NCBI GenBank assembly: GCA_963666285.1
Contig: OY762711.1
From: Sedimentisphaerales bacterium
GTDB lineage: Bacteria > Planctomycetota > Phycisphaerae > Sedimentisphaerales > SM23-30
Reading direction: 5' to 3' (one strand)
DNA length: 64,000 bases
A program made the translations under genes and the position numbers. Numbering within the stretch: the stretch's first letter is position 1; each line of letters opens with the position of its first letter. The notes under the pieces are model-generated. The model was not told where the DNA came from. It did not search any database and saw only the letters and a program-made list of their open reading frames with translations. Positions 3,127 through 24,643 of this stretch are shown here, in pieces.

Positions 3127-3147
3127 TAAGGAAAAAGGGAGAAATAA

Positions 3148-4614: not shown

Positions 4615-5308
4615 AAGCTTGCTTAAATTAGCTAGCTATAAGGGAACTGATTTTTTTGATAAAGAATCTATTGGTTTAATAGCTAGAGGACCTTCTTCTA
4701 AGGCTATAGAGGAATGTAATAATAAGTTTAACCATTGTTTCTTGGCGGGAGAGTTTAATAACAACATAGATAAAATAGGAGTGTATCTAAAGAATAAAGA
4801 TATAGTTTTGAGTATTGTTCAGACAGGAAGATATAGAACTCCTCCTGATAAGTGTAAAAGATATAATATTAAAAATGTTCAAATAATTCACCAATATGGA
4901 ACCTCAAATTATTATGAGAGTGTGAAAAGATTTTTAGACATTAAAGTAGTGGGATATACAGAACATCAGGTATTAGAAGCAAAAGAAATATTTAAAGAAG
5001 ATATGGAATGTAAATATGGGATATGGACAACAGGGATAGCTGGTCTTTTCCATGCTTCATATTTTAGACCTAAGAAATTATATGTTATGGGAATAGATTT
5101 CTATAATGAAGATAAGGATAAATATTCAATCCCTGAGGACCATGATATCTTAGATGATACTGTAGAAATATCTGCTGAAAGAATGAGAGATGGAATGTTA
5201 AAGAATTTCTATTCTATATGTGATTTCTATTCAGATGTTGAATATATAGTCTATACAACATTCCCAGGAATTAAGAGTGGGAAAAACATAAAAGTTATAG
5301 AAATATAA
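4604..5308 (+). CDS. Glycosyltransferase, CstII/GT42- or Maf-like (sialyltransferase-type fold)
   Basis: N-terminal 'IGLIARGPSSKAI' and C-terminal 'TTGIAGLFHASYFRPKKLYVMGIDFY' parallel CstII 'IIAGNGPSLK' and 'TSGVYMCAVAIALGYKEIYLSGIDFY'. TTG start overlaps the upstream stop; RBS AAGGAAGG. Confidence 0.68.
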   Translation: MTLKSLLKLASYKGTDFFDKESIGLIARGPSSKAIEECNNKFNHCFLAGEFNNNIDKIGVYLKNKDIVLSIVQTGRYRTPPDKCKRYNIKNVQIIHQYGTSNYYESVKRFLDIKVVGYTEHQVLEAKEIFKEDMECKYGIWTTGIAGLFHASYFRPKKLYVMGIDFYNEDKDKYSIPEDHDILDDTVEISAERMRDGMLKNFYSICDFYSDVEYIVYTTFPGIKSGKNIKVIEI

Positions 5309-5321
5309 AAGAGGATTTTTA

Positions 5322-5411
5322 ATGGAAAAATATAATAGTAAAAATATAGATGTGTTAGCTGATGAAGCTTAGATTATAGTTATTAAGGAAGGTGTATATA
5401 TTGACAAATAA
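5322..5411 (+). pseudogene. Relic copy of the 3' end of the Ser-repeat gene with an in-frame TAG
   Basis: MEKYNSKNIDVLADEA*IIVIKEGVYIDK* versus ...LTADEALIVAIKEGIAIDS*. 5358-5411 aligns without gaps to 4561-4614 (40/54 nt identical). Confidence 0.7.
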
Positions 5412-5739
5412 CAAACCTAATAAATATGGGGAAATCATGGATAATATGAAATTTATTTCTGTTGTAGTTAGCCTAATCTTATCAGTAGGATTTTATATTT
5501 TTATGGCTGGAAAATTAACAGAATCAATTAACCAAAATACTAAGGCAATTCAAGCTAACACTGCTCAGATTACCAAGAATGCAGAAGACAATAGAAATAC
5601 AGATAAGAAACAGGAAGAAGATATAACAAAACTTAAAGAATATAAGGCTTCCTCAGAAGAAAAATTAGATAACATTTGTGAAGATGTTAAAGAAATAAAA
5701 ATAGATATCAAAGAATTATTGAAAAATAAAAATGAGTAA
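5401..5739 (+). CDS. Holin-like membrane protein (one TM helix plus coiled coil)
   Basis: Hydrophobic 'FISVVVSLILSVGFYIFMAG' then a charged heptad-rich tail 'EEKLDNICEDVKEIKIDIKELLK'; overlaps the next gene. Start is either TTG 5401 (RBS AAGGAAGG) or ATG 5437. Confidence 0.5.
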   Translation: MTNNKPNKYGEIMDNMKFISVVVSLILSVGFYIFMAGKLTESINQNTKAIQANTAQITKNAEDNRNTDKKQEEDITKLKEYKASSEEKLDNICEDVKEIKIDIKELLKNKNE

Positions 5740-6541
5740 TGAAATAAAAACACTTCTTAGAAAAGGAATACTTAGGGACCCTGAAGACTCAAGAGATTAT
5801 CAACTATCTTCAATCTCTTCAGGTTCTTCTATACCGCCCTCAGTTGACCATAGCCCTTATATGTCTTCTGTTAAATACCAAGGGAACCTTGGGGCTTGTG
5901 TGGCTTTCTCTGTGGTTGCTCTGAAAGAGTGGCAGGAACAGAAAGAATATGAGGAAGAGAGGAAACAGGGTAGTTCTTATAAAAGGGATAAAACATATAA
6001 TCTTTCTGAGCAATGGTTATATTGGAATTGTAAGAAGATTGACCCTTGGGGAAATAGTGTAGAAGGAACTAATATCAGGTCTGCCATGAAAGTGTTGAAT
6101 AAAATAGGAGTTCCTCCTGAAAAGGCTTGGACTTATACTGACGATAAAATAAATATAGGGGAACCTAAATCATGGGCTAATCTTATTTCTAGGTGGTATA
6201 GAATTGGTTCTTATTGGAGAATCAATAATCTTGATGAGTTAAAACAGGCTTTAGTAGATGGACCTGTTGTAATAGGACTAAAGATTTTTGAGGATATTAT
6301 TGAGCCATTGAAAAATGGGAAGGTCCCTCTCCCTGAAAGAAATAGGAGTCTTGGGGGACATGCTTTATTGGCAGTTGGTTATAATGATGAAACAAGGGAG
6401 ATTAAGGTTAAGAATAGTTGGTCTAAGTTTTGGGGAGAAAGAGGATATGGTTATTTTTCCTATGAATATATAGATAGATATATGTTAGATGCTTGGGCTT
6501 GTAGAGATATAGAGGTAACAAGGGACATGTTAAAAAATTAA
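5732..6541 (+). CDS. Papain-family (C1) cysteine peptidase
   Basis: Catalytic motifs 'VKYQGNLGACVAFS' (Q, C), 'NLSEQWLY', 'GGHALLAVGY' (H) and 'KNSWSKFWGERGYG' (N). Confidence 0.93.
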   Translation: MSNEIKTLLRKGILRDPEDSRDYQLSSISSGSSIPPSVDHSPYMSSVKYQGNLGACVAFSVVALKEWQEQKEYEEERKQGSSYKRDKTYNLSEQWLYWNCKKIDPWGNSVEGTNIRSAMKVLNKIGVPPEKAWTYTDDKINIGEPKSWANLISRWYRIGSYWRINNLDELKQALVDGPVVIGLKIFEDIIEPLKNGKVPLPERNRSLGGHALLAVGYNDETREIKVKNSWSKFWGERGYGYFSYEYIDRYMLDAWACRDIEVTRDMLKN

Positions 6542-6649: not shown

Positions 6650-8041
6650 TTATTTTTTAAGAGTGAAATAATATTCATGTAAATCTCTAACAAGGTCCTT
6701 AGTATCTTCAGGCATTTGATAAATATAAGACTCATCCGCGCCGGGGATTTTTCTTCCCATAATAGCCTTATAAGCTAGTGTGTTAGAATGATATCCTAAT
6801 TGACTTGCTTTAGTAGCAGTCATTTTTCTAAGTTTATCCTGAGTCAACCATTCCATTTCAGCCTTAGTTCTAACCTTGTTGAAATGGTTCCTAAGGTCCT
6901 TGTCTGACCATATATTATTGTGTTTAGTTAAGAATATATATTCAGTGTCATTAGGGTATTTATCCATATATTCTTTAATTGCTTTTATGGTTATATCCCA
7001 TAATTTACAGGCTTGTAGATTCCCATTTTTATTCCTGAAAGATAGATATTCTTTATTGTCAAAGTCTATCATATCTTTAGTTATTTCTGCAAAATCTCCC
7101 CATCTTATACAGCAATTTAGACCTAATAATATAGAACATTTAACAAGTATATCCTCATTAGAACAGTCTAATAAGTTTTTAAGTTCAGAAGAAACTAAAA
7201 CTTTCTTAGATTTGTTAAACTTAGCCTTGTTTTCTTCTTCTTTTTTGACATAGGTTAATTGGTTCATATGTTCTAGTAATGTTATGCAATCTTGTTTAAT
7301 AACTCCTTTAGATTTATCTCTGAGCCTTCTTATAACTCTTTTGACTGGATCGAAATTATTCTTAACATACCTGTATTTATTTTTAATAGTGGCTTTTTTT
7401 GCTCGTTTATGTATTTTAAGGTTATAGGTGGTTATATCTTCAAAGGTGATTTCTCGAATGGAAGACCTGCCTACAATAGATTTAAATTCTTTCCAAGCAG
7501 GCTTAATATTCCTATTCAAATCTTTATCACTTGAGCCTGTATAGTGGCTCTTATATAGGTCCCATACTTCAGACATAGGAAGGCTTTTTTCAAGTGGTTT
7601 TACATCATGTAAATAAGCTAGCTCAGGGATATTTAGTCTTTTAGCAGAGTAGGGGAGGTTAGCCTTTATTACCTTTTCAGCAAGGCTCCAGAACTCATCA
7701 GTTATGTTAAGACTGTCTATAGACACTTGTCCCTGTTCTATCTGTCTTAGAGTTTTTACATAGTCTTCAGGGGAATATAGGGAGCCATCTTCAGGTATAT
7801 CTATTTCAAACTCATGGATTTTAGGAGCCTGAATAATAATATTATGCTCTCTTTTATAGATTTCAAACTTCTGAAGAGCCTTGTTAAAATCAGAGCCACA
7901 AGTTACTTGTTTCTTATTATCAAGGTAATAATAGGCTTTGACTCTTCCATCTTTCCACTTGTTTGTATATAAGCCTTCTACTATTTCACCAGTATGAGGA
8001 TTAGTAGCCCATGAAGCTTTTTTTCCTGATTTTTTAGCCAT
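6650..8041 (-). CDS. int: Tyrosine recombinase / phage integrase
   Basis: Box I 'LLGLNCCIRWGDFAEI', Lys in 'RNKNG', box II-like 'QDKLRKMTAT...AIMGRKIPGADESY'. Adjacent to the att site. Confidence 0.85.
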   Translation of the reverse strand: MAKKSGKKASWATNPHTGEIVEGLYTNKWKDGRVKAYYYLDNKKQVTCGSDFNKALQKFEIYKREHNIIIQAPKIHEFEIDIPEDGSLYSPEDYVKTLRQIEQGQVSIDSLNITDEFWSLAEKVIKANLPYSAKRLNIPELAYLHDVKPLEKSLPMSEVWDLYKSHYTGSSDKDLNRNIKPAWKEFKSIVGRSSIREITFEDITTYNLKIHKRAKKATIKNKYRYVKNNFDPVKRVIRRLRDKSKGVIKQDCITLLEHMNQLTYVKKEEENKAKFNKSKKVLVSSELKNLLDCSNEDILVKCSILLGLNCCIRWGDFAEITKDMIDFDNKEYLSFRNKNGNLQACKLWDITIKAIKEYMDKYPNDTEYIFLTKHNNIWSDKDLRNHFNKVRTKAEMEWLTQDKLRKMTATKASQLGYHSNTLAYKAIMGRKIPGADESYIYQMPEDTKDLVRDLHEYYFTLKK

Positions 8042-8195: not shown

Positions 8196-8239
8196 TCTTA
8201 CGGAGACAGGTTTTACAGGTTCGACTCCTGTCGGGCGTA
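8196..8239 (+). other. Prophage attachment site (attR): 3' half of tRNA-Arg(ACG)
   Basis: Anticodon loop TT-ACG-GA, 3' stem GACAG, T-arm ACAGG-TTCGACT-CCTGT, acceptor strand CGGGCGT-A. The 5' half (D-arm, CTGTC stem) is absent and replaced by phage sequence. Confidence 0.88.
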
Positions 8240-8245
8240 TTACTT

Positions 8246-8770: not shown

Positions 8771-9646
8771 ATGATCGTTATTAATAAATCAAATGTTTCT
8801 ATAGGTAACCACCAAATTCTTGGCGAAAATTCCCCCGGCATTGAGCTGCCAACCGGTCAGCAAATTCCAAAAGAAAATCTGCAAAATTCTGCTAATAATC
8901 AGAAAAAATCAAAAGATAAAATGCTAAAACGGAGATACGAGCTCAAATATCGTATTCCGGAAGCCAAAGCCAGGGCTATAGCTAAATATGTCGAAGATTA
9001 TATCCCGGTAGATAAATTTTCCAAAGATAAGGAAGATTATGAATATCCAATTTCCAGTTTATATTTGGATTCTCATACTTTAGATCTTTATAATGAGACA
9101 ATTGATAAAAAAGTAAATAGATTTAAGCTTCGTGTACGTTGTTATGATGACAATAGCGAATCACCTTGTTTCTTTGAGATTAAACGCCGTTTTAATAGCG
9201 TTATAGTAAAAGACAGGGCTAGAGCAGAGAAGAAAGACCTTGCTGATATTCTCCTGAATGGATGTTTTGTTCCATGCCAATTAGATAAAGACTGTGAAGA
9301 GACATTAAAGCAGTTTCAGTTTTATGCTCGTATGATTAATTCACGACCAATTGTTTTAGTGAGATATATTAGACAGGCATTTGAAGGCAGTTCTTCAAGT
9401 CGAGTTAGGATCACTTTTGACCGTAAACTAAGTTATAAAATGGTTAATTCTCCTGAACTGGTTGTAGGGGGAGGCGGTTGGCAAATGGTCCCAATGGATT
9501 TTGTTGTACTGGAAATTAAATTTTCTGATAATTATCCTTCATGGCTTAGTGATATGGTCAAAATTTTTGATCTGAAACAAACTTCAATGTCTAAATATTG
9601 CTCTACGGTTAAGCAGTCTTTTGCTTTAGGATGTAACAGTTTTTAA
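8771..9646 (+). CDS. VTC-domain (polyphosphate polymerase-like, CYTH/TTM tunnel fold) protein
   Basis: 'RRYELKY', 'ISSLYLDS', 'RFKLRVRCY', 'FFEIKRR', 'VRYIRQAF', 'VRITFDR', 'VLEIKF', 'SKY'. Alternative start ATG 8921. Confidence 0.9.
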   Translation: MIVINKSNVSIGNHQILGENSPGIELPTGQQIPKENLQNSANNQKKSKDKMLKRRYELKYRIPEAKARAIAKYVEDYIPVDKFSKDKEDYEYPISSLYLDSHTLDLYNETIDKKVNRFKLRVRCYDDNSESPCFFEIKRRFNSVIVKDRARAEKKDLADILLNGCFVPCQLDKDCEETLKQFQFYARMINSRPIVLVRYIRQAFEGSSSSRVRITFDRKLSYKMVNSPELVVGGGGWQMVPMDFVVLEIKFSDNYPSWLSDMVKIFDLKQTSMSKYCSTVKQSFALGCNSF

Positions 9647-9663
9647 GATAGGCAGGTGCAGCA

Positions 9664-10365
9664 TTGACTGAAAGAATATGGGAGGTCATCCAGAGAGCTT
9701 CTTCTGATGGAGCTGATTTTAGTGTTCAAGGTGTTTTATTATCCTTGTTGCTTGCATTCATTCTTGGACAATTATTAGCTTGGGTTTATTATTTTACTCA
9801 TAATGCCCTTTCTTATTCCAGAACATTTGTCCAGTCTCTGATATTGATCACAGTTGTAGTAGCTATGGTAATGTCTACAATAGCAGGCAGTTTTGTTGTT
9901 GCTGTTGGACTGATGGGTGCTCTTTCCATCATACGGTTTAGAAATATAATTAAGGATACCCGCGACATATGTTTTATATTTTGCGCTCTTGTTATTGGTA
10001 TGGCATGCGGTTCTCAAAGATATACAATTGCAATTATTGGGACGATATGTATTTGTGCTATTATTTTCTATTTATATCTATCTGATTTTGGTTCTCATCG
10101 TCCTCATAATGCTTTTTTGAGATTCAAGATGCCTGAACATATCAACCCCAAACATCCTGTAGTTGTAACTTTAAATAAGTTCTGCAGGTCTCATACTATG
10201 ATTTCTTCTCAGGATAGTAGCTTTGGAGAGGTGGGTGTTGAGTATGCTTATCAGATCTTAATCAAAAATGTTGCTAACAATGAGCAGATGATGAATGAAT
10301 TGCAATCTGTTGGCGGAGCACAAAACCTTAATTTAACTGTGCAGGAACAATTATTGCAAATTTAG
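9664..10365 (+). CDS. DUF4956-family membrane protein
   Basis: N-terminal TM helices with 'YSRTFVQSL...GLMGALSIIRFRNIIKDTRDICFIF..LVIGMACG' and a C-terminal ACT-like soluble domain. Classic neighbour of VTC-domain genes. Confidence 0.88.
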   Translation: MTERIWEVIQRASSDGADFSVQGVLLSLLLAFILGQLLAWVYYFTHNALSYSRTFVQSLILITVVVAMVMSTIAGSFVVAVGLMGALSIIRFRNIIKDTRDICFIFCALVIGMACGSQRYTIAIIGTICICAIIFYLYLSDFGSHRPHNAFLRFKMPEHINPKHPVVVTLNKFCRSHTMISSQDSSFGEVGVEYAYQILIKNVANNEQMMNELQSVGGAQNLNLTVQEQLLQI

Positions 10366-10374
10366 GAGCCAAAA

Positions 10375-11529
10375 ATGTCTATAAAAATGGGAACGACTAA
10401 TTTGCTGACAAGGTCATTGCCGGTGCTTATGTGGTGTGCCGCTTTAGTAGCTGTTGGCTTTCTGTTTGTTGATCAGTCAGAAACCGTCAGGTTAAAAGGT
10501 ATTGCTTTCAGTGATGAACAGGTGATCAATAGTGTTGAGACTGGTTACATTAGTTCTTTACCTGTTCAGTTATATCAGAAAGTCAAAAAGGGTGAGACTC
10601 TTGCTATCATCAAAGAGAATACTTCTGCTAAAGATGAATATGTAAACCAGCTTCTTATAGCGTCAAAGGCTACAGCTGAAGCTGAATTGGCCAGGCTGCG
10701 ATCGGAACTTGAAGCTGCTGAAGAGAGAATGCTTCAGGAAATGGCAGGTATCGAAAATGAACATTTTGAGATTGAAAGAAATCTGGCTTTGGATGTTGAA
10801 ACCGCCAGGCTCAATATGTTGGAGGTAAAGTCTAATTTAGAGCCTGATAAACTTGCATTGAAAGACCTGGAAGTTGAAATAGAAATTGTTAAAAAACTTT
10901 TAGCTGAAGACGCCGCTGAAGAATATGAGTTGCAAAAGATTGAAGCTTCATATGCAATTATGAAAGAAAAGGTAAAGCAGCAGGAAAAATTGCTTGCCCA
11001 GACGCAAAACAGTTATGAATTTGCCCAGATCCGTAAAGATGTTTTTGACCAGAAACATCCTTTAAGACCGAGATTGTCAGAAAAGGAATTAGCACCTATA
11101 CGCAAGGCTATCATTGTTCAGGAAAAGAAAATTGAAGAATTAATGACGCAGCATGACGTCCTGGTGTTGAACGCTCCTTTTGACGGTATTGTGAGTAATC
11201 TAGCTTATAAGCCGGGACAGACGGTTGTTCGCGGTGAGCCAATTATGACCATTGTAAAGCCTACTCCAGATACTATCACTGTATGGGTGCCGCAAAGTGA
11301 AATGAATAAGTTTGATTTGCACACAAAAGTTGAAGTAGTATCGTTAGATATTCCTAAACAGATTTTTGTCTCTCAGGTTTCAAATATGAGCGAATCGCTC
11401 GAACAGATTCCACAAAGACTCTGGCATGACCCGGCTATTCCTCAATGGGGAAGAGCACTCCAGATTCCTATTCAGCCCAATTTTATTTGTTTAAGTAATG
11501 AAATTGTTGGCATAAGATTAGTCCGTTGA
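10375..11529 (+). CDS. HlyD-family membrane fusion (periplasmic adaptor) protein
   Basis: N-terminal TM anchor; lipoyl halves 'SVETGYISSLPVQLYQKVKKGETLA' and 'LNAPFDGIVSNLAYKPGQTVVRGEPIMTI' flank a long coiled coil. Confidence 0.88.
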   Translation: MSIKMGTTNLLTRSLPVLMWCAALVAVGFLFVDQSETVRLKGIAFSDEQVINSVETGYISSLPVQLYQKVKKGETLAIIKENTSAKDEYVNQLLIASKATAEAELARLRSELEAAEERMLQEMAGIENEHFEIERNLALDVETARLNMLEVKSNLEPDKLALKDLEVEIEIVKKLLAEDAAEEYELQKIEASYAIMKEKVKQQEKLLAQTQNSYEFAQIRKDVFDQKHPLRPRLSEKELAPIRKAIIVQEKKIEELMTQHDVLVLNAPFDGIVSNLAYKPGQTVVRGEPIMTIVKPTPDTITVWVPQSEMNKFDLHTKVEVVSLDIPKQIFVSQVSNMSESLEQIPQRLWHDPAIPQWGRALQIPIQPNFICLSNEIVGIRLVR

Positions 11530-11552
11530 TTTAATTAGTTATTTTTTGCTTG

Positions 11553-13199
11553 ATGAAAATATTTTATAAAAAAATATTAGTAGCTCTGTTATGTCTAGTT
11601 GTGGCAGGGTGCAATAATGATTTAGCCGAATCTGTAAAAAAAACAGATGACCAGGTGTATGACATTATAGATAATGCCTGGGCTGATAATCTGGGACCGG
11701 CTTGTGATTATACCATTTCTGTAGATCCTAACCAGGTTGATGATCCTGATTTAACTATTGATTTCTCTAAAATCGGTATTTTGTCTTTGCCGAAGGCAGT
11801 TGCTTTAGCTTCAACATATAATCGACAGTATGCATCAGAGAAAGAGCTTCTTTATTTGACTGCCTTGGAACAGGTTGATGTTAATCATTTATACGAGCCT
11901 ATTCCGTTTGCCGGCCTGAACGGTGGGCAGGTAAAAGATGGTTCCGACGAAGCTGCCGGAGTTTCTGGTGATATAGGTTTCTCTCAGTTATTGTCAACAG
12001 GTGCCCGCATAGGTTCTAATATCAGTATTGGCTGGTTCGATATATTATCTGGCGATATGAAAAGCGGTCTGTCTACTATTGCTTCAGCCGTAATTACCCA
12101 GCCGCTGTTGAGAGGTGCCGGAAGAAAAGTTGCATTTGAGAATTTGACTCAGGCTCAACAAAATACGTTATACCAGATAAGGTCTTTTAATCGTTTTAGA
12201 AAAGAGTTTATTACTTCTGTAATCTCTGGTTATTATCAAGTTTTGATATATCAGGAAAGACGTCAAAATGCTCTTGAGCATCTTAATAATCTGCAGGATA
12301 CCTATAATAAGTTCCAGAAACGCGCAGTTGCAGGAAAAGTGTCCAGACATCAATTCGATCAGATAGAACAGGATATTTTACAAGCTGAATCTGAATATAT
12401 AACCAGGCAAAAAGAATACGAGAATGTGTTGGATACTTTCAAAACTTTAATGTCTGTATCTCCTGATACAGAATTAGAACTTGATGCTAATGAGCTGGCT
12501 GCTTTGAAAGATTCAATTTCTCAAAATGTTGATATGTTGTCAATAGACCAATCCATTGATATAGCCTTAAATCAACGACTGGATCTTGCTAATGCCGCTG
12601 ACAAGGTTATTGATGCTGAGCGTAAGGTTGATGTGGCCGCTGATGCTATTCGTGCAGAGCTCAACCTGGTCGGTTACGGTCAGACTCATGCCGGTAATAA
12701 AAACAGGGGAGCGTTTGGTGCAAGTGTTGGTCAGCTTTCTCGGGCTCAAAGCGAGTTTGAATTAAGCTTGCAATTAGACTTACCTCTTGACCGGGTTGCC
12801 GAAAAAAATGCCTATCGCAGAGCCATGATTACTCTTGTCCGGATGCATAGAGAACATCAGCAGGTAACTGATGATATAATTATGCAGATCAGAAATTCGT
12901 ACAGACGAATGAAAGAGGCGCGGTCAAAATATCAGGTTGAATTACAAAATCTTAGAGTAGCACGGAAACGCACTGATAATTCAGTTTTACTGCTGCAATA
13001 TGGAAGAGCATCAACTAGAGATATGTTAGATGCCCATGAAGATCTATTTGAGTCAAAAGATGCAGTCGCAGAGACCTTAGTCGAATGTATAACAGCAAGT
13101 CTTGATTATTATAGAGATACCGGTATGATGAAAATTCGTCCCGATGATACCTGGGAAAACGAGATTCCAGCTCAAAATACCGTGTCTAAGTCTGAATAA
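11553..13199 (+). CDS. TolC-family outer membrane channel (lipoprotein)
   Basis: Lipobox 'LVVAGC', 'ITQPLLRGAG', 'LSIDQSIDIALNQRLDL', 'LQLDLPLDR', 'YGRASTRDMLDAHEDL'. Confidence 0.88.
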   Translation: MKIFYKKILVALLCLVVAGCNNDLAESVKKTDDQVYDIIDNAWADNLGPACDYTISVDPNQVDDPDLTIDFSKIGILSLPKAVALASTYNRQYASEKELLYLTALEQVDVNHLYEPIPFAGLNGGQVKDGSDEAAGVSGDIGFSQLLSTGARIGSNISIGWFDILSGDMKSGLSTIASAVITQPLLRGAGRKVAFENLTQAQQNTLYQIRSFNRFRKEFITSVISGYYQVLIYQERRQNALEHLNNLQDTYNKFQKRAVAGKVSRHQFDQIEQDILQAESEYITRQKEYENVLDTFKTLMSVSPDTELELDANELAALKDSISQNVDMLSIDQSIDIALNQRLDLANAADKVIDAERKVDVAADAIRAELNLVGYGQTHAGNKNRGAFGASVGQLSRAQSEFELSLQLDLPLDRVAEKNAYRRAMITLVRMHREHQQVTDDIIMQIRNSYRRMKEARSKYQVELQNLRVARKRTDNSVLLLQYGRASTRDMLDAHEDLFESKDAVAETLVECITASLDYYRDTGMMKIRPDDTWENEIPAQNTVSKSE

Positions 13200-13502
13200 T
13201 TTGATTTTAGTCCGTTTATTCGCTTTTTTACCAATTATAATAAACTGGCTTCCTGATTAATACGATATAAATCAAATGTTTATATTCTATTTTTTTATAG
13301 ATATTTAAGTGAATATTTGTTTATATATTAAATATGTAATCAAGAGTCGTATTTTCTTTTTACGATTCATTTATTATATGATTTGTGTTTATTTATGAGG
13401 AGATTCACTAAGCAAAGGTTACGCTATTTTTTCATATTTTAAACAAATAATGTTCATATATGAACCAGGCTAGTGTGTTCTTAAAGAAGGAAAAGAGGTA
13501 AC

Positions 13503-16500
13503 ATGAGAAGTTTAGTCAGAATTGTTGTTGTAATAGGATTGTTATGTTTTTCAGTTAATGCTGAATTAGTGCATCGATACAGTTTTTCCAGCGATGCTTC
13601 TGATTCAGTCGGTAGTGCTGATGGTGTTTTGGTCAACAATGGAGTTGATGCATATTATACCGGTTCATCCCTTGAAATGGGAAATACTGAGCAGCCAAAT
13701 TCAAACAGTACTCAACTTAACTATGTAGACTTGCCAAACGGTATTATTTCCAGTCTTGGCTCCGGGGCGACATTTGAAGCCTGGGTTACCTGGCATGGAC
13801 CTTCAACTTCATCCTGGCAGAGAATATTTGATTTTGGGACAAGTGATGCCGGAGAAGACTTAGCTACCGGCGGAACAAATTCTACATATTGTTTTATGTC
13901 TCCTTATTCAGGAAGTGGTACATATAGATTTGGACATCGTCGAGGAGCTGAATTAGGTGATGTTGTTGAGAATGTTATTGATTCTGCTACCTTGTCGGTA
14001 AATACTGAGGTACATGTAGCTGTTGTCTGGGACGATGTATTAGAGACTGTATATATGTACCAGGATGGTCAACTGGTTGCAAGCGGACCGTTGATTGTTA
14101 AGCTTGCTGATATACCTGATGTTAATAACTGGCTGGGACGCTCGCAATGGGCGGATACTGCGTTTAACGGCAGTTATAATGAGTTTCGTATATATAATGA
14201 AGCTTTAAGTAGTGGAATGATACAGGCCAGTTATGAATCAGGACCGGATTCTCCGATTACTACTTATATGATTCCAACTGACCCGTCTCCGGCTGATCAG
14301 GCAAAAACCGGGACTGCAACTCCGCTTCTTTCCTGGACCTCTGATTCCAGCAGCGATATTTCCAGTCATAATATTTATCTCGGAACAGATTACGCTTCGG
14401 TTCAAACTGCAACTACTGCTTCGACCGGAATATATCAAGGTCAGAGTTTATCAGGAAACACCAGCTTTCAGATTGTTAATGAGCTTGTTCCCGGCCAGAC
14501 TTATTACTGGCGTGTTGAAGAAGTAACTTCCGGATATACTTTTAGCAGTCCGGTCTGGAGCTTTAAAGTTGTGAGTACTAAGGCCTATGCTCCTCTACCG
14601 GCAAATAATGCTGATGGCATAGCTGTGCTAAACTCTATTCTGCAATGGCAGCCAGCTGAGGATGTTGTTGCTCACAGAATTTTATTGGGTACATCTGCAG
14701 GTTCGCTGCAAATAATAGAAGATAACTACGCTAATTCATCGTATTCTCTGGAAAGTCTTGATTATCAGACACAATATTATTGGCGTGTTGATGAAATTTA
14801 TGAAGATACATCTGTAGTTACCGGTAATGTCTGGTCTTTTATAACAAGACCATCTGTTATATCATGTTTGCCGGGTGATTTGAATGGCGACTGTAATGTT
14901 ACCATCAGCGACCTTGTGATATTTTCTCAGCAATGGCTCAATCAGGCTGGTTGTGTTGGTTATAGTGGTGATTGTGCCGATCTGGTTGGAAATGACGGCG
15001 TTAAGAACAATGATTTCGCAGTAATGGCTGGCCAATGGGAAAATCAAGGTGAATTTTCAGTTGTAATAAATGAAATACACTATCATCCTGATTCAAATAT
15101 CGAACAGGTTGAGTTTATTGAATTATATAATGCCGGTGTTCAGCCGGTAGATTTGAACGGCTGGTCTTTTGATGGTGCCGTGGATTACGATTTTCAGGGT
15201 GTACCGTTGTTGTATCCTGATGGTTATATTGTAATATGCAAGAATCAGGGAGACTTTTATACTAAGTATGGTTTCAGTGCGTACGGACCTTTTGAAGGTA
15301 AGTTAAGCAATGAAGGTGAAAATCTGATTTTAAGAAATGAGCTTGGTGATAAAGTTGATAGTGTTGATTATAATAGTGAGTTCCCTTGGCCGATAGCTGC
15401 AAATGGTGAAGGGGCTTCCATGGAATTGATTAATCCTCTGCTTGACAACAATCTAGCCGGCAGCTGGAGAAGTTCTGGCTTCAATCTAAATGAACGACCC
15501 GAGTTATCTTTTGGCTTACCTACACCTGGAGCTGTTAACAGTATATATTCTGCCCAGGTACCGCCTCATATTCGCCAGGTTAATCATAGCCCCAGTCAGC
15601 CTCTTTCCAGTGAGTCTGTCATAATAACGGCAAAGGTTACCGATCTTGATGGTGTTAGTAGTGTTGTCTTGAAGTATCAGGTAGTTACCCCCGGTAATTA
15701 CATCCCGGCTTATCTGCCTGTCGAGCATAGCTCACTTTTAACCGATCCGGATCAATTATGTCCGCAGAACCCGGATTTTGAAAATCCTGAAAATTGGGTT
15801 GCTGTTAATATGGTTGACGATGGCAGTGGGTTTGATGGAACAGCTGGTGATAATGTATATACAGTTGTTCTGGCCCCTCAAATCAATCGTACTTTGCTGC
15901 GATATAGAATTGAGGCCTCAGATACGTCTGGTAATTCAGTTCAAGTACCGTATGCAGATGATGAATCTTTGAATTTTGCCTGTTTCGTATATGATGGAGT
16001 TCCGGACTACGTCACAACCGATGCTTCTGTCCATTCCGATGGTGTTGGACATGCTTATAGCTCGGAGACGCTAACTTCGCTTCCTGTCTATACTCTGATT
16101 ACCAGGAACGAAGATTTATACGAATGTAACGGGTATAATTCGGCTGACCAGATAGACCAGTCAACAGCTTCTGCTGCTATTCAGGATGCAGGTCGAGCTT
16201 ATAACTGGGAAGGCTGTTTTGTATATGACGGCAATGTTTATGACCATATTGGATATCGTCTTCGCGGCGGAAACGGAAGATACAATAATGGGGCAGCTGG
16301 TAAACGCTCTATGAAATTCCGTTTTAACCGTGGAAATTATTTCCAGGCTCGAAATATATATGGTAAAAAATTCCCATCTAAATGGCAGCATCTGAATACT
16401 GGAAAAATGTTTGGTAACAAGATTGTTTGGGACTATTACCGAAAATATCCTTACGGCTTGAATGAAGTAATGAATATGCTGGTATTTGATATTGCTAATG

Positions 16501-19500
16501 TACCGTCAGCTCATACTTACTGGATGCATTTTCGTGTGATCGATGGCCCAACTGAGACACCTCTGGTAAGCGGCGGCCAATATAATGGCGATTTCTGGGG
16601 CCTTTATGTTGCCTTCGAAAATTATGATGGAGCTTTCCTTGACAGGCTGGGTTTGCCAAAGGGTAATTTATATAAGTTGTCTGATAAGGTTTATGAAGGT
16701 GAACGTCAGCTTCGTTATCAGGGACCGGATGCTGTCAGTGCTTCAGAAGATTATGAAAATATTCGCTGGAATCTTAATCATAACTCTACTGCTGAATTTA
16801 TTCGAAATTATATGGACTGTGGTGAATGGTATCGTTATCACACGGTAATCGAATCTATCAGGTCTTTTGATATTTTCTCCGGTGCCAGCTGTGTGCATTG
16901 TCTTAAGAACTCTGCCTGGTATTTCTATCCTGATTATACCGAAGCGAATAATAATTATGGTAAAGTCCAGTTTTTGCCGTTCGATGTTGATGATACCTGG
17001 GGACCATTCTTTAATTATGGTATTGACCACGGCAAAGCGGCTGTTCTTGATCAGTCTTTTGATAATGATCATGTTTTAGAGTATTTTGATCTGCAGCCGG
17101 AAAAATCATCGCTAAGACAGGAATATCGCAATTATATCCGCGAGTTCCGTGATCTGGTCTGGCAGCCTGAGGTGATTGATACGCTTATTTTGGATATGGC
17201 GTCAGTTATTATGGATTTTGTACCTGCTGATCGTGATCGATGGAAAGAAGATCCTACTTCCGGTGGTGCGATAGATAACGGTCCTTTTGATGACGGGCTG
17301 GCGTTAATGCAGCAGTTTGCATGGAGCCCTGGTTATTTCGATGGAATGTATTACTGGGAAGGTACTTCTAATCATTTGGACAGCCTTGCTGGTGATGAAG
17401 ATGATGATTCCTGTATTCCCTATACCCCGACTGTTAGCTATATAGGCTCAACTGGCTATCCGGAAAACGATTTATGGTTCCATACTACAGCTTTTGCTGA
17501 TCCTCAGGGAGTCGGTACTTTTGCCGCTATGAAATGGCGTATTGCTGAAGTCGAACCTTCTTCCGGACAGAGTGGACCTTATACTGTTAACCTGATCAAT
17601 AGTGAGGAAACCGATTGGAAATACTACAGGGCAATTGACAGCGGCCCATCGTATCCGGATGATGCGTGGACTGCCGCTGATTTTAATGACAATTCCTGGC
17701 AGATCGGGCAGACCAGTATTGGTTATGGTGACAACGATGACAATACAGACTTGAATGATCAGTCACCGGAAATGCAGGGGAATTACTATACGGTATATCT
17801 ACGTAAATCATTTGAGATACTTAATATGGATGATATTAGTTCTTTTGCTATGAGCTTGTATGTTGATGATGGTTGTATTGTATATATTAATGGCGTTGAG
17901 GTTGTTCGGCATTATTGCTCTGCCGGGGAAAAATCATGGAATTCAACTTCGGGCCAGACAGTAGATAATCCATCCTGGGAATCTGTGAAGCTTCTTTCTC
18001 CATACGACTATTTCGTTGAAGGTGACAATACAATCGCAATTCATGTATTGAATCAAGGGATAAACAGCTCAGATTTATCTATTGATGTCGAATTAACTGC
18101 GACATATGGAGGTGATTCGTCAGAAGCTCTTCCACTGGCACCACGGAAACTTGAAATTGATGCCCTATGGGAAAGTGATGATATAACAACTTATGACAGT
18201 GATATTTTAATGCCGGCAAATGGTGTCAAGCCGGGCCGCACATATCGTGTACGATGCAAGATGAAAGATGATACCGGCAGATGGAGTCACTGGTCGGATC
18301 CGGTCGAATTTGTCGCTGGGGAAGCGATTCCAAGCCCGCTCAGAGAACATCTTCGTATTACAGAGCTTATGTATAACTATGATGATGCTGAATTTATTGA
18401 ACTGTATAACAGCGGCACAGAGATATTGGATTTAAGTGATGTTTCATTTACCAGCGGCATAACATTCAGCTTTGCTGACTGTTTTATTCAAGCGATAGAG
18501 CCGGACAGCTACATATTGGTTGTTAAATATCTGGATGATTTTGAAGAACAATATGGCACCGGCTTCAATAATATTATTGCCGGTGAATATTCTGGTTCTC
18601 TTTCAAATGGTGGTGAAGTTATCAAGTTGGAAGACACCTGGGATGGCACTTTATCCGAATTTGAATACAATGATGCTCGAGGATGGCCTTTGGCGGCAGA
18701 TGGTGCAGGGCACTCTCTTATCCCGCAGGAATGGGCTATAGAAGATGAGCCGCTTGGTACCCTGAATTATGGTGGTAATTGGCGTGCCAGTTCCTTTATG
18801 GGTGGTTCGCCGGGTACTGCTGATCCGACTCCTGTTGTTAATGTTGTTATAAATGAAATTATGGCACACACTGACTTCAGTGACCCTGTAAATTACCCGG
18901 ACTATGACAGTAATGACTGGATAGAGCTGTTTAACAGCAGTGATTCTACGGTTATTTTTGATGGTAACTGGTATCTTAGTGATGAAAGTGATGAGTTAGA
19001 TAAATGGTCATTACCTGTATCTTCTTTGAATTCTCAAGATTATGTCAGTTATGACGAAATCTCTGGATTTCATTGTCCTATTAGTTCAGGATTTGGATTA
19101 GACAAATCTGGAGAAAAACTTTTCCTGTCATATTTACCGGGAGATGGTCAGGATCGTGTAGTCGATTGTATTGAGTTTAAGGGCCAGGAAAATTCCATTT
19201 CTATTGGCAGGTTTGCTGATGGCAAACAATATTGGTTTAGTTTTGATCAGCCGACAAAAGGCAGTGAAAATCTTAATCCGGCTGAGCATATTGTTATTAG
19301 TGAGATAATGTATAATACGGCAGATGGGCAATATGAATACATTGAACTAACGAATGTTACAGATTCGTCTGTAGATTTAACTGTTGATCTGCCTTTGGGC
19401 GGTGTTAGAGGCTGGGCTGTTGATGGTGCTGTTCAATATGAATTCCCTGCCAATGCTTCTATTAGTGCAGGTGAAATAGTACTTGTTGTTGATTTTGATC

Positions 19501-19832
19501 CGGCTGATTCAGCTTTACTTGACGATTTTGAGGCTTCTTATGGCATAAATGGCTTAACTGCCGGTGTCGATATTTTCGGGCCTTGGGATGGATCATTGTC
19601 AAACGATGGTGAACGTGTAACCTTTGAAAAACCTCAGGATTCAGATGACCCGTTAGAACCTCTGGAAGTGTCATGGGTTATTGTTGATGAGTGTATTTAT
19701 AATGACTATTGGCCTTGGCCTGTTGATGCTGATGGTACCGGGTTATCGCTTCAGAGGATTTCGAGTTCTGCTGCTGCTTCAGGTAATGATCCGGATAATT
19801 GGCAGGCAGCTGAGCCGGACCCTGGTCAGTAA
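13503..19832 (+). CDS. Secreted multidomain CotH-kinase protein (LamG, FN3-like, dockerin-like, lamin-tail domains)
   Basis: Signal peptide; LamG 'WQRIFDFG...NNWLGRSQW'; 'GDLNGDCNVTISDL'; four 'VINEIHY/ITELMY/VINEIMA/VISEIMY...IEL' lamin-tail repeats; CotH core 'YRLRGG...KRSMKFRF...GLYVAFE...FLPFDVDDTWG'. Confidence 0.88.
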   Translation: MRSLVRIVVVIGLLCFSVNAELVHRYSFSSDASDSVGSADGVLVNNGVDAYYTGSSLEMGNTEQPNSNSTQLNYVDLPNGIISSLGSGATFEAWVTWHGPSTSSWQRIFDFGTSDAGEDLATGGTNSTYCFMSPYSGSGTYRFGHRRGAELGDVVENVIDSATLSVNTEVHVAVVWDDVLETVYMYQDGQLVASGPLIVKLADIPDVNNWLGRSQWADTAFNGSYNEFRIYNEALSSGMIQASYESGPDSPITTYMIPTDPSPADQAKTGTATPLLSWTSDSSSDISSHNIYLGTDYASVQTATTASTGIYQGQSLSGNTSFQIVNELVPGQTYYWRVEEVTSGYTFSSPVWSFKVVSTKAYAPLPANNADGIAVLNSILQWQPAEDVVAHRILLGTSAGSLQIIEDNYANSSYSLESLDYQTQYYWRVDEIYEDTSVVTGNVWSFITRPSVISCLPGDLNGDCNVTISDLVIFSQQWLNQAGCVGYSGDCADLVGNDGVKNNDFAVMAGQWENQGEFSVVINEIHYHPDSNIEQVEFIELYNAGVQPVDLNGWSFDGAVDYDFQGVPLLYPDGYIVICKNQGDFYTKYGFSAYGPFEGKLSNEGENLILRNELGDKVDSVDYNSEFPWPIAANGEGASMELINPLLDNNLAGSWRSSGFNLNERPELSFGLPTPGAVNSIYSAQVPPHIRQVNHSPSQPLSSESVIITAKVTDLDGVSSVVLKYQVVTPGNYIPAYLPVEHSSLLTDPDQLCPQNPDFENPENWVAVNMVDDGSGFDGTAGDNVYTVVLAPQINRTLLRYRIEASDTSGNSVQVPYADDESLNFACFVYDGVPDYVTTDASVHSDGVGHAYSSETLTSLPVYTLITRNEDLYECNGYNSADQIDQSTASAAIQDAGRAYNWEGCFVYDGNVYDHIGYRLRGGNGRYNNGAAGKRSMKFRFNRGNYFQARNIYGKKFPSKWQHLNTGKMFGNKIVWDYYRKYPYGLNEVMNMLVFDIANVPSAHTYWMHFRVIDGPTETPLVSGGQYNGDFWGLYVAFENYDGAFLDRLGLPKGNLYKLSDKVYEGERQLRYQGPDAVSASEDYENIRWNLNHNSTAEFIRNYMDCGEWYRYHTVIESIRSFDIFSGASCVHCLKNSAWYFYPDYTEANNNYGKVQFLPFDVDDTWGPFFNYGIDHGKAAVLDQSFDNDHVLEYFDLQPEKSSLRQEYRNYIREFRDLVWQPEVIDTLILDMASVIMDFVPADRDRWKEDPTSGGAIDNGPFDDGLALMQQFAWSPGYFDGMYYWEGTSNHLDSLAGDEDDDSCIPYTPTVSYIGSTGYPENDLWFHTTAFADPQGVGTFAAMKWRIAEVEPSSGQSGPYTVNLINSEETDWKYYRAIDSGPSYPDDAWTAADFNDNSWQIGQTSIGYGDNDDNTDLNDQSPEMQGNYYTVYLRKSFEILNMDDISSFAMSLYVDDGCIVYINGVEVVRHYCSAGEKSWNSTSGQTVDNPSWESVKLLSPYDYFVEGDNTIAIHVLNQGINSSDLSIDVELTATYGGDSSEALPLAPRKLEIDALWESDDITTYDSDILMPANGVKPGRTYRVRCKMKDDTGRWSHWSDPVEFVAGEAIPSPLREHLRITELMYNYDDAEFIELYNSGTEILDLSDVSFTSGITFSFADCFIQAIEPDSYILVVKYLDDFEEQYGTGFNNIIAGEYSGSLSNGGEVIKLEDTWDGTLSEFEYNDARGWPLAADGAGHSLIPQEWAIEDEPLGTLNYGGNWRASSFMGGSPGTADPTPVVNVVINEIMAHTDFSDPVNYPDYDSNDWIELFNSSDSTVIFDGNWYLSDESDELDKWSLPVSSLNSQDYVSYDEISGFHCPISSGFGLDKSGEKLFLSYLPGDGQDRVVDCIEFKGQENSISIGRFADGKQYWFSFDQPTKGSENLNPAEHIVISEIMYNTADGQYEYIELTNVTDSSVDLTVDLPLGGVRGWAVDGAVQYEFPANASISAGEIVLVVDFDPADSALLDDFEASYGINGLTAGVDIFGPWDGSLSNDGERVTFEKPQDSDDPLEPLEVSWVIVDECIYNDYWPWPVDADGTGLSLQRISSSAAASGNDPDNWQAAEPDPGQ

Positions 19833-19865: not shown

Positions 19866-19906
19866 ACTCTGTTTCTGTTATTCGAATAATGGAAACAGAG
19901 TTTTTT
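19866..19906 (+). terminator. Intrinsic terminator
   Basis: ACTCTGTTTC...GAAACAGAGT followed by a T-run. Confidence 0.8.
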
Positions 19907-20124
19907 AATGTCCGGAATTGCTGAGGTTGGGGTTAGTTGGTTATATAAATGACGTAGATGTGGCTAAGTGTCTGATATTAAATGGCTTGTGATGTGTATA
20001 ATATTGTGTCTTTAATTTTTTGAAAAAAAAGTTTTTTTTATGTGTGAATTATCGGTTGGGATGCGGTTGCTTATTAAGAAGTTACTAATTGCATATATAT
20101 TCTATTATGCGAAAATAATCATAT

Positions 20125-20637
20125 ATGGAAAATAATCAAAATACAGCTTTTGTAGAGTTATATACTACTAATTATATCAGGATCAGGGCATTTATTCTGT
20201 CTTTAGTTCCTAATATTACTGAAGCGGATGATATCATGCAGGAAACATCACGCGTGATGTGGCAGAAGTTCGACCAGTACCAGCCCGGCACAAATTTCGC
20301 CTCCTGGGCTGTTACTATCGCTAAATATGAAGTTTTGAAATACAGAAGAACCTATAATTCCAAGGTTCCGCTCGGCTCTGATGTTATTGAAATTATGGCT
20401 GATGAAACTAAAGGGCCTGATATCGAGGAAAATGAGAGACTTGATGCTTTAAAAGGCTGTTTGAAAAAATTAAATGAAAAAGACCATAGTCTGATTCGTC
20501 ATCGATTTGAACAGAAAACAACTGCTAGGGAATTATCAAAGCAGTATGGCGTTGCCATGAATACTATATATCGAAATGAGATTAGAATTTTACGTGTTTT
20601 ACAAAGTTGCATAAAGAAATCACTGAGGGCAACTTAA
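20125..20637 (+). CDS. ECF sigma-70 factor
   Basis: 'IRAFILSLVPNITEADDIMQETSRVMWQKFDQYQPGTNFASWAVTIAKYEVL' and region 4 'LKGCLKKLNEKDHSLIRHRF'. Confidence 0.93.
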   Translation: MENNQNTAFVELYTTNYIRIRAFILSLVPNITEADDIMQETSRVMWQKFDQYQPGTNFASWAVTIAKYEVLKYRRTYNSKVPLGSDVIEIMADETKGPDIEENERLDALKGCLKKLNEKDHSLIRHRFEQKTTARELSKQYGVAMNTIYRNEIRILRVLQSCIKKSLRAT

Positions 20638-20639
20638 TT

Positions 20640-22349
20640 ATGACTGATAATAATCAATATAAAGAGCTGGAACTCCTGATTATTCGTTCATTAGATGGTA
20701 CTATAACTTCTGATGAGTTTAGCAGGTTAAATGATATCCTTAGATCGGATGTTCAAGCCCGCAAAACTTACCGGTCATTTATGACTATGTATTGTGATCT
20801 GGAGATATCTTTGGGGATGTCAGAAGAGCTTAATTCTTCGGTTGCTTCGGATACGAACCAGGATATTAGCCAGGATTGCCTGGTCAGTCTCGCTGAATAC
20901 GAAAATAACGCACCGGCGATAGAAATTGAGCCGGTAGAAGATAATTCCGGTATTGTAGAAGAAGTTCAGATTGTTAAAGATAGAAAACAAAATAGTAGAT
21001 TTTATAGAATCTTTGATAAGTTTGTGTATATAGCCGCCGCTTTCATGATTATTTTTATTATCTATGCCGAAGTTTTTTCTCCTCAGTATACTGTGCCTGT
21101 AGCGTCTGTTATAGATCAAATAAATGTGAAATGGGGGAACGGTTCACACAACTTAAATAATAACGATAGAATACTGACTAATCAACCTCATTATGAAATT
21201 GAAAAAGGTATTATTAAAATCAGTTATGACAGTGGCGTGGATGTGATTATTGAAGGGCCTGCACGGTTTCAGTTTGAAAAACAGGGTATTGATATAAAGT
21301 ATGGCCGATTATACTCTTACGTGTCAAATACAGGTCGTGGTTTTACCGTTGATACCCCAAACAGCCGCTTTATTGACCTTGGCACTGAGTTTGGTGTTTT
21401 TGTTGATAAAAATGAGACTTCTGAACTACATGTATTGAAAGGTGAAGTGCAGTATTATTCCGGGCGGCCCGGCACGGATAAGGTTAGCAGGACAATTAAA
21501 GAAAATAATGCCAGGAGGTTTAATGCTGATACTGGCGAAGTTCAGGCAATCCCGGTAGCTGAAGAGTATTTTGCTCGCCAGGTAAATTCTAAAAGCGGGA
21601 TGATATGGCGGGGACAAAAGTCGCTTGACCTGACCAGTATAATTGCCGGCTTGGATGGTTTCACTCCGGTTAAATCTGCTAAAGGTATTAGTCCGCTCTC
21701 CGGCACATACGAATCTCCTTACTTTTATAAAGATACTGTTACTAATAATAAATATAACCTGTTCAATGATTCTTTATTTATTGATGGTGTCTTTGTGCCT
21801 GACGGAGGCAAAAACCTGGTTACTGTATCTTCGACTGGAATTACATTTAACTGTCCCAATACTTCCGGAAAGTATTCTCATAATATTTGTGTCTTTCGGG
21901 GTGGTTTAGGAAAGACTGATTCGACTATACTACCGCCGGTATTTAATAATCAGGATTATTCTCTGTTAGATGAACCTGTTTTATTCATGCATAGTAATTG
22001 TGGTTTGACTATTGACCTTCAAGCTATAAAAGATTCTAAACCGGAATTGAATCTTGACGGGTTTACTGCCTGGGGGGGCATCACTGAAGCGGCCAAAGAT
22101 GTCGAAGACGAACCTGATGTTAATTTCTGGATTCTTGTTGATGGCCAGATTAGATATAAAAAAGAGTTTCTAAAAATTGATGACGGTACTGTGGCTTTTG
22201 ATATTGATATTTCAAGCCAGGATCGTTTTTTGACAATCATAGTGTCTGACGCTCTAAAAGATCCTGATCGCAGGGATTATCCCTGGGGCAATGACTTCTT
22301 TTATCTGGTTAGCCCGCAAATTGAGTTAACGCATATTATTGATAATTAG
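20640..22349 (+). CDS. FecR-type anti-sigma factor with C-terminal NPCBM/NEW2-like domain
   Basis: Cytoplasmic N-domain, one TM, FecR 'FTVDTPNSRFIDLGTEFGV...ELHVLKGEV', C-terminal 'VNFWILVDGQ...DIDISSQDRFLTIIVSD'. Confidence 0.88.
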   Translation: MTDNNQYKELELLIIRSLDGTITSDEFSRLNDILRSDVQARKTYRSFMTMYCDLEISLGMSEELNSSVASDTNQDISQDCLVSLAEYENNAPAIEIEPVEDNSGIVEEVQIVKDRKQNSRFYRIFDKFVYIAAAFMIIFIIYAEVFSPQYTVPVASVIDQINVKWGNGSHNLNNNDRILTNQPHYEIEKGIIKISYDSGVDVIIEGPARFQFEKQGIDIKYGRLYSYVSNTGRGFTVDTPNSRFIDLGTEFGVFVDKNETSELHVLKGEVQYYSGRPGTDKVSRTIKENNARRFNADTGEVQAIPVAEEYFARQVNSKSGMIWRGQKSLDLTSIIAGLDGFTPVKSAKGISPLSGTYESPYFYKDTVTNNKYNLFNDSLFIDGVFVPDGGKNLVTVSSTGITFNCPNTSGKYSHNICVFRGGLGKTDSTILPPVFNNQDYSLLDEPVLFMHSNCGLTIDLQAIKDSKPELNLDGFTAWGGITEAAKDVEDEPDVNFWILVDGQIRYKKEFLKIDDGTVAFDIDISSQDRFLTIIVSDALKDPDRRDYPWGNDFFYLVSPQIELTHIIDN

Positions 22350-22469
22350 AAGTCGGACGCTATTTTAGCAAAAGTATTATAATATTTGGAGGATAGTTTA
22401 TGTAGTGTGTCGCATTTGTTAGGGTATTTTTCTTACAATTATAGTTATTTTGATTTTGGAGATTTTAAG

Positions 22470-24602: not shown

Positions 24603-24643
24603 TGTTTTTCATAAATCTTCTAATCGTTTGATTAGATCCTCAA

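Follow-up and report, generated by a model that had tools for sequence, protein, structure and literature searches.

The 64,000-nucleotide stretch of contig OY762711.1 (assembly GCA_963666285.1) from a Sedimentisphaerales bacterium, here called the window, carries four tightly spaced genes encoding a VTC-domain enzyme, a DUF4956 membrane protein, a HlyD-type adaptor and a TolC-type outer-membrane factor, followed by the gene of a large CotH protein. Judged from the sequence, it is about an even bet that these genes encode a pump-less line which exports a phosphoryl donor, probably polyphosphate, to CotH kinases that are predicted to be secreted. That the exported product feeds CotH is a proposition towards which we lean slightly, and the best-supported common thread is the supply of a phosphoryl donor via DUF4956 to exported CotH kinases.

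In the proposed mechanism polyphosphate would be made from ATP by the VTC enzyme and cross the inner membrane through DUF4956, after which the adaptor and TolC would take it on to the cell surface. There the seven predicted-secreted CotH kinases of this genome, having themselves left the cell by Sec and not via the tube, would use it as phosphoryl donor. DUF4956, VTC and CotH would make up the core of the system, to which the adaptor would have been added a single time, in a lineage with large, surface-type CotH proteins bearing LTD domains, and loci without an adaptor would deliver to the periplasm or cell wall only. In its fullest form this is a power line to the surface, in which a Vtc4-type polymerase threads polyphosphate through DUF4956 and the adaptor-TolC tube as a new, synthesis-driven class of tripartite exporter and the secreted CotH proteins are polyphosphate-dependent ecto-kinases; this form is put forward tentatively, as a possibility.

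Operon anatomy and conserved gene order

8771..9646, plus strand: VTC-domain enzyme, soluble, with a predicted Vtc4-type triphosphate tunnel; 291 amino acids (aa), the conserved part from about the ATG at 8921; Pfam PF09359, E 2.9e-43
9664..10365, plus strand: DUF4956 inner-membrane protein; 233 aa; Pfam PF16316, E 1.8e-15
10375..11529, plus strand: HlyD-type periplasmic adaptor with an N-terminal membrane anchor; 384 aa; Pfam HlyD_3 (E 1.6e-11) and HlyD_D23
11550..13199, plus strand: TolC-type outer-membrane factor with a lipoprotein-like N-terminus (LVVAGC); 549 aa; Pfam OEP, E 1.2e-20; TIGR01844, E 6.9e-18, under cut-off
13200..13502, no strand: AT-rich gap of 303 bp with one weak promoter-like match at 13257-13286 and no terminator-like site
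13503..19832, plus strand: CotH protein; 2109 aa; signal-peptide-like N-terminus, LamG, Fn3-like and dockerin-like repeats, four LTD stretches and a CotH kinase domain; no RTX repeats
16044..17624, plus strand: CotH kinase domain, aa 848-1374, with R921-G, K934, E1039, D1123, N1136 and D1161; a profile of 52 sequences finds B. cereus CotH 5jd9 (E 5e-59)
19866..19911, plus strand: intrinsic-terminator-like hairpin of 16 pairs with a T run, from a sequence scan (hairpin and T run lie at 19866-19901 in the detailed description)

A first-pass annotation, made from the letters alone, had described these five open reading frames as four tightly spaced genes and, after a gap of about 300 bp, the CotH gene, and both the coordinates and Pfam agree with it; all five lie on the plus strand. 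The intergenic gaps are 17, 9, 20 and 303 bp, the third becoming 23 if TolC starts at the ATG at 11553. The annotation had also closed the cluster with a terminator; the hairpin after CotH is present, though only four of its pairs are G-C and the region has 17 such sites where shuffles give 8.6. The gap between TolC and CotH yielded no terminator-like site, promoter-like matches across the region stay near the shuffle expectation (64 against 49), and CotH may be transcribed apart from the four upstream genes. As had been claimed, DUF4956 is the multi-pass membrane protein of the operon: hydropathy gives it at least four membrane segments, the adaptor, TolC and CotH one N-terminal segment each, and VTC none. 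Both envelope parts of tripartite systems, adaptor and outer-membrane factor, are present by Pfam (HlyD_3, HlyD_D23, OEP). The absence of an ABC or RND pump from the operon, which the annotation had pointed out, is borne out: no ABC, RND or MFS gene was found among the 17 proteins between 907 and 30340 that were run against Pfam. No NCBIfam model reached its cut-off for VTC, DUF4956, the adaptor or TolC.

Gene order was compared in 74 planctomycete loci, made up of the window, all 31 other VTC matches from a class sample of 121 genomes, 40 of the 74 rows of a phylum sample (chosen for contig room) and two from a contig scan, and in the best 80 of 590 metagenome loci, a set biased toward adaptor-type DUF4956. 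Beyond Planctomycetota the coverage consists of four monoderm loci, 14 control genomes and the metagenome contigs. In the planctomycete loci DUF4956 is present in 65 of 74, adjacent to VTC in 58, and CotH in 45. The order VTC-DUF4956-adaptor recurs in 35 of the 74, which is beyond chance, the adaptor lying directly after DUF4956 in 35 of the 63 loci with room for it. In the metagenome loci the corresponding counts are 41/60 for the adaptor after DUF4956, 12/23 for the channel and 0/44 for a pump.

The association also holds at the level of whole genomes. In a survey of 201 Planctomycetota genomes, whose kin are not independent, VTC is found in 61 and CotH in 66, with both in 55 (20 expected if independent); CotH thus accompanies VTC in 55 of 61 genomes and is found in only 11 of the 140 without VTC. 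All 36 genomes with at least three CotH matches have VTC. A strong DUF4956 match (at least 115 bits) occurs in 53 genomes, and 51 of these have VTC by a hand count that leaves out 18 genomes with weaker matches. The co-occurrence of the three families, which the first-pass annotation had mentioned, is thereby borne out. Among the 14 control genomes VTC and DUF4956 are found in B. thetaiotaomicron, C. glutamicum and M. acetivorans, and CotH in these and in B. subtilis.

The VTC enzyme and its membrane partner

A profile built from 74 VTC sequences and searched against solved PDB chains at E up to 10 matched only Vtc4 (3g3q, E 1.7e-29), Vtc2 (3.5e-16) and Vtc3 (1.8e-11), and no CYTH, ygiF or other TTM chain came up within that limit. 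In the profile alignment, read by hand, K59, R121, R123, K138, Y199, R201, E248, S274 and K275 of the window protein correspond to Vtc4 K200, R264, R266, K281, Y359, R361, E426, S457 and K458, and all nine Mn-triphosphate ligands of Vtc4 have counterparts. The position of Vtc4 K458, a residue reported to be absent from Vtc2 and Vtc3 (10.1101/2023.01.27.525886), is Lys in 73 of the 74 sequences. The protein has PF09359 as its only family, with no SPX domain and no membrane segment.

Alternatively the protein might act as other tunnel metalloenzymes do, as a triphosphatase or a cyclase, and so remove or signal some by-product of CotH action. At the position of Vtc4 T198, 73 of the 74 sequences have Glu, a CYTH-like trait (motif ExExK); the first acid of that motif, however, is replaced by Arg, as in Vtc4 R196, in 66 of the 74. 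Bacterial CYTH/TTM proteins have been characterised as short-chain polyphosphatases (10.1101/567040), but the failure of any such chain to appear in the profile search speaks against this reading, which we regard as very improbable. By profile and ligand residues the VTC protein is Vtc4-like and not CYTH-like, with an active site that appears intact, in keeping with the comparison to yeast Vtc4 in the first-pass annotation, and polymerisation of phosphate is its probable activity. This genome has one VTC, one DUF4956, seven CotH genes and a separate PPK1; no match to PPK2 was found in it. Because PPK1 is encoded separately, cytosolic polyphosphate storage does not need VTC.

The AlphaFold2 model of DUF4956 (pLDDT 87.6) consists of five helices and a C-terminal ACT-like domain. 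This domain gives structure matches of Z 8-10, and fold searches with the whole model returned ACT-like folds only. A Gly/Ala-rich helix is followed by the pair R91-F-R93, whose two arginines are invariant in 65 sequences, and K97-D98-x-R100-D101 is conserved in charge. Such an arrangement may be one that a polyanion pore might have, and the basic residues would face the cytoplasm, provided that the ACT domain is cytoplasmic. The sequence suggests a distant relative of MgtC, under the family cut-offs (PF02308, 21.5 bits against 31.4, E 3e-4; NF007431, 27.8 against 214), and the layout of a membrane part plus an ACT domain is common to both.

Structural comparison of the membrane domain was less informative. 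Alone it had no Foldseek match at E 0.001, and in a fold search its best hits (Z 7.7) were generic helical bundles; VTC subunits were not listed, though a shared fold may still exist. A profile search of the PDB with DUF4956 returned nothing significant, and an ESM Atlas search with the membrane part nothing useful. A complex prediction with three DUF4956 copies and VTC scored 0.18 against a mark of 0.32, without folded controls, and speaks neither for nor against such a complex. On balance we favour, with some reserve, DUF4956 being a transporter or channel and not only a regulator.

Adaptor, CotH kinases and competing readings

The distribution of the adaptor links it to DUF4956 and not to a pump. 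With nine candidates scored per genome, 19 genomes gave a total of 22 adaptor-profile matches of at least 247 bits, and the next best scored 132 bits. All 22 lie directly after DUF4956 at VTC-DUF4956 loci; 18 of them were in the training profile, and the four held out all show the order VTC-DUF4956-adaptor. The subfamily was found nowhere else in the genomes searched, and each adaptor locus with sequence upstream keeps VTC. It is also large, as 150 representatives at less than 50% identity score above 315 bits, and its named relatives belong to Phycisphaerae and Sedimentisphaerales, from which the host is taken to be a diderm planctomycete. In two Bacillota replicons the profile gave weak matches only (71 bits at most). 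A same-strand ABC or RND gene lies near 2 of the 35 adaptor loci in genomes (L015 and L020, both ABC) and near none of 44 metagenome loci, in a count made without an MFS model, and each of the five RND pumps of this genome has its own adaptor. Quite likely the adaptor binds to DUF4956 and brings in an outer-membrane factor, either adjacent or borrowed. Such a factor directly follows the adaptor in 13 of 33 loci (14 if L047 is counted by Pfam) and is found somewhere in the locus in 17, and TolC relatives occur in 13 of the 14 more distant adaptor genomes.

In L016, L017, L019 and L020 a related outer-membrane factor lies upstream of VTC together with a second, short adaptor, and in L020 an ABC ATPase precedes them. 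At L166 (G000:C1:6027169-6032495) an ABC ATPase gene comes after three adaptor-domain genes in a row, one of which has GAF domains. An exported protein of 360-440 aa without Pfam family comes after the TolC gene in eight metagenome loci (L089, L090, L095, L096, L106, L110, L114 and L128). Look-alikes of the adaptor in the ESM Atlas fall in clusters of Planctomycetota, Cloacimonadota and Verrucomicrobiota.

The first-pass annotation had expected HlyD and TolC to follow diderm status. This expectation failed: the adaptor is present in 35 of 63 diderm loci, all of one VTC clade, and the outer-membrane factor in the 13 of 33 given above. That the adaptor simply tracks the outer membrane was rejected on the same ground of its confinement to one clade. 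In the monoderm loci no adaptor follows DUF4956 (4/4), and one of these loci lies among polysaccharide genes.

The window CotH protein was recognised by Pfam as CotH (PF08757, E 1.1e-12) with four LTD stretches and Laminin_G_3. A single-sequence PDB search with its CotH domain found nothing and a profile was needed; the resulting alignment places D1123 and D1161 opposite D224 and D247 of 5jd9. From their spacing these would correspond to D228 and D251 of B. subtilis CotH, which are required for activity with ATP (PMC7821199). The seven CotH genes of the genome encode proteins of 1773-2804 aa, all with LTD and, by eye, a hydrophobic signal-like N-terminus, and six of them lie far from the operon. 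The link of CotH to the operon which had been proposed therefore stands as genome-level co-occurrence and is lost as strict linkage, the adjacent CotH being one of seven scattered paralogues and CotH being absent from 29 of the 74 loci.

Type I secretion substrates lack an N-terminal signal and carry RTX repeats. The window CotH protein has an N-terminal hydrophobic stretch and no match to GGxGxD (RTX), and exit of CotH through the adaptor-TolC tube was rejected on these grounds. This bears on a reading without any shared conduit, in which DUF4956 is an MgtC-like regulator, VTC is cytoplasmic, and adaptor plus TolC either serve a pump whose gene lies elsewhere or secrete CotH as a type I system. 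The resemblance of DUF4956 to MgtC with its ACT-like domain is in line with this reading, as are an ABC_membrane exporter without neighbouring adaptor in this genome (L163), the ABC gene, second adaptor and channel upstream in L020, and the suggestion of the S. intermedius authors that polyphosphate stays cytoplasmic (10.1101/2024.04.20.589940). It is made improbable by the adaptor subfamily, not found away from DUF4956, by pumps near only 2 of 79 adaptor loci and by the CotH N-terminus with its lack of RTX repeats. A pump elsewhere, named at the outset as what would refute the proposal, is thus disfavoured for the adaptor (22/22 with DUF4956); TolC is less specific and often encoded elsewhere.

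CotH proteins differ with the kind of locus that they adjoin. Beside adaptor loci 24 of 26 have LTD and their median length is 1537 aa, against 4 of 45 and 729 aa beside other loci, lengths being counted from the first possible start and some being cut by locus ends; a Pfam check of LTD gave 7/9 and 4/32, respectively. Both kinds of locus exist in four related genomes (L004/L032, L007/L029, L008/L033 and L009/L031). The contrast is in line with the addition of a tube that serves kinases lying outside the outer membrane.

Several findings weigh against the proposed export of polyphosphate to CotH, and some of them favour its main rival, in which the supply line is the same and the cargo is ATP or another nucleotide, exported by DUF4956 to CotH with VTC in a dispensable supporting role, regenerating, buffering or gating it. 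The six DUF4956 copies that are not beside a VTC gene (L167-L172) all adjoin CotH with no VTC within 11-14 kb, and two genomes with such loci have no VTC match at all; VTC and DUF4956 can hence no longer be regarded as the obligate split synthase-translocase that was first suggested. The CotH domain has the same motifs as CotH of B. cereus, and the relative of that protein in B. subtilis uses ATP. The tube has no net positive charge, with values per 100 aa of -3.1 for the adaptor and -2.1 for the channel, like the other adaptors and channels of this genome. In S. intermedius the loss of the membrane gene, which appears from 10.1101/768473 to be DUF4956, or of cotH reduced aggregation, and in the part of that study covered no such loss is reported for deletion of the VTC-like gene (PMC12345266). 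Against a nucleotide cargo, VTC is kept in 51 of the 53 genomes with strong DUF4956 and in every adaptor locus with upstream sequence, 58 of 74 loci have VTC and DUF4956 side by side, and the polymerase-type active site is almost invariant; we consider this rival unlikely.

Other findings weigh against polyphosphate delivery to CotH more generally. In S. intermedius the membrane-gene and cotH mutations had opposite effects on the level of Pel (PMC12345266). A weak search for VTC-DUF4956 fusions found none; it gave one 560-aa match among 1639 longer candidates. The outer-membrane factor is missing from 15 of the 33 adaptor loci, and relatives of the window TolC occur in 104 of the 201 genomes irrespective of VTC. 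In a quick tree the VTCs linked to an adaptor fall together in a single group (SH-aLRT 93) with 39 rows, of which 35 have the adaptor, 2 are truncated and 2 lack it, so that the contrast in adaptor and LTD-bearing CotH is one event and not a statistical test. The many loci without CotH, the unlinked ABC exporter at L163 and 10 of the 61 VTC genomes, which lack a strong DUF4956 although several are CotH-rich, point the same way, as does a divergent VTC clade (L052, L063, L065, L074 and L176) in which VTC is followed by a protein of 557-598 aa, with a thymidylate-kinase domain and a repeat-like tail, in place of DUF4956. Some of these last loci are preceded by an exported protein of 400-560 aa of no family, and their genomes have 5 to 10 or more CotH matches.

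Polyphosphate could also be exported as an end product, serving as a surface polyanion or as a metal or mineral scaffold, with CotH binding or remodelling the polymer and not using it as donor. Vtc4 both makes and translocates its polymer (10.1101/2023.01.27.525886), adaptor-TolC tubes take part in BgsAB-TolC polymer export (PMC13438883), five four-gene loci have no CotH nearby (L002, L003, L010, L012 and L014) and six VTC genomes have no CotH match. The conservation of the CotH kinase residues, the persistence of DUF4956 with CotH when VTC is gone and the expansion of CotH, never seen without VTC in this sample (36/36), make this reading distinctly unlikely.

Flanking genes and known systems

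A tyrosine integrase gene (6650-8041, minus strand) lies beside a 30-base copy, at about 8213-8242, of the 3' end of tRNA-Arg(ACG), which is found at G000:C1:2104127-2104156; more copies occur at C1:2144727 and 4483907. Integrase and att-like repeat mark the right-hand boundary of an integrated, low-GC (0.32-0.35) element that lies immediately upstream of the operon and is probably one of tandem islands. The operon as part of this element was ruled out, the repeat being upstream of VTC. Among the low-GC genes at 907-6541 no Pfam family was over cut-off except a papain-like peptidase at 5732-6541. Past the terminator, at 20125-30340, there is a glycan-use cluster with an ECF sigma factor, a FecR-NPCBM anti-sigma factor, a LamG protein, a PEP-CTERM protein and GH115. 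A resembling sigma/anti-sigma pair comes after the four genes in L005 and also flanks another CotH paralogue. Recurring neighbours in other loci (L056:14177-15001; L066, L078; L142, L146, L149, L153, L154) include a phosphate-selective porin O/P, as well as Cthe_2159 proteins after VTC, and an uncharacterised protein of 334-351 aa recurs before CotH in low-GC loci near glycan genes.

Of the known systems, the yeast VTC complex (Vtc4/Vtc3/Vtc1; 3g3q, 8i6v, 7ytj; 10.1101/2023.01.27.525886) resembles the window operon in its homologous catalytic tunnel with all Mn-triphosphate ligands and in having a small partner protein with several membrane helices and, on the side predicted to be cytoplasmic, conserved basic residues. 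In contrast to the yeast complex, the window enzyme is soluble and has neither an SPX domain nor membrane helices of its own, DUF4956 is MgtC-like with an ACT domain and without sequence match to Vtc1, and an adaptor, an outer-membrane factor and kinases are attached, while VTC can be missing.

The trio of cotH, poly-phosphate polymerase and DUF4956 has been described at Gram-positive pel loci, with no function assigned in the parts of these reports covered (10.1101/768473; 10.1101/2024.04.20.589940; PMC12345266), and is also listed in NELoc-2 of C. perfringens (PMC2879425). In S. intermedius (SIR_1592-1594) the same three families are adjacent; the window differs in having no pel or glycan genes with them, in the added adaptor and TolC, and in a 2109-aa multidomain CotH with six dispersed paralogues. 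According to the part covered of the mBio article, its authors met with the trio at pel loci only, yet it is common elsewhere.

A precedent for a tube without a pump is BgsA-BgsB-TolC, which exports a Sinorhizobium glucan, together with the cyanobacterial cellulose systems cited in the same paper (PMC13438883). These share an inner-membrane polymer enzyme, a HlyD-type adaptor and TolC, the last possibly encoded elsewhere, and have no ABC, RND or MFS pump. In those systems a glycosyltransferase with seven helices acts as synthase and makes a glucan, whereas here a soluble Vtc4-type enzyme and a separate DUF4956 protein are present and export is predicted. The mark of that type, a polymer synthase tied to an adaptor with no canonical pump, has its counterpart here at the level of gene linkage only, with a putative synthase of a different family. 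Tripartite efflux and type I secretion systems likewise have a periplasmic adaptor and an outer-membrane factor (PMC8277102); in the window no ABC, RND or MFS transporter belongs to the operon, although an unlinked partner is possible, and the neighbouring protein has a Sec-like signal and no RTX repeats. The part of that review covered names ABC, RND and MFS partners and does not contain 'polyphosphate' or 'MgtC'. The Bacillus CotH spore-coat kinase (5jd9/5jda; PMC7821199) shares the kinase domain, with the catalytic aspartates in register, but is a protein of 359 aa, assayed with ATP, from a genome without VTC or DUF4956, whereas the window CotH is of exported type and modular.

Related literature includes PMC10657179 and PMC10434189, also consulted in part. 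Among the papers covered, with few subscription articles and no supplements (those of the pel studies may bear on gene order), none was found that connects VTC or DUF4956 with an adaptor or with TolC, or that names polyphosphate as a donor for CotH. The system is real, conserved and uncharacterised; it would work like a VTC complex combined with a synthase-type tripartite exporter, being a member of neither as defined.

The periplasm and the cell exterior are without ATP. For that reason kinase activity of secreted CotH proteins is unexpected, and it has been called so for an extracellular protein (PMC12774918). If the proposal is true, the VTC-DUF4956 line would explain how secreted CotH kinases, which are widespread, work away from the ATP of the cell. 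Moreover it would give functions to bacterial VTC proteins and to DUF4956, add a new class of inner-membrane partner for adaptor-TolC tubes and provide a bacterial counterpart of the eukaryotic VTC complex.

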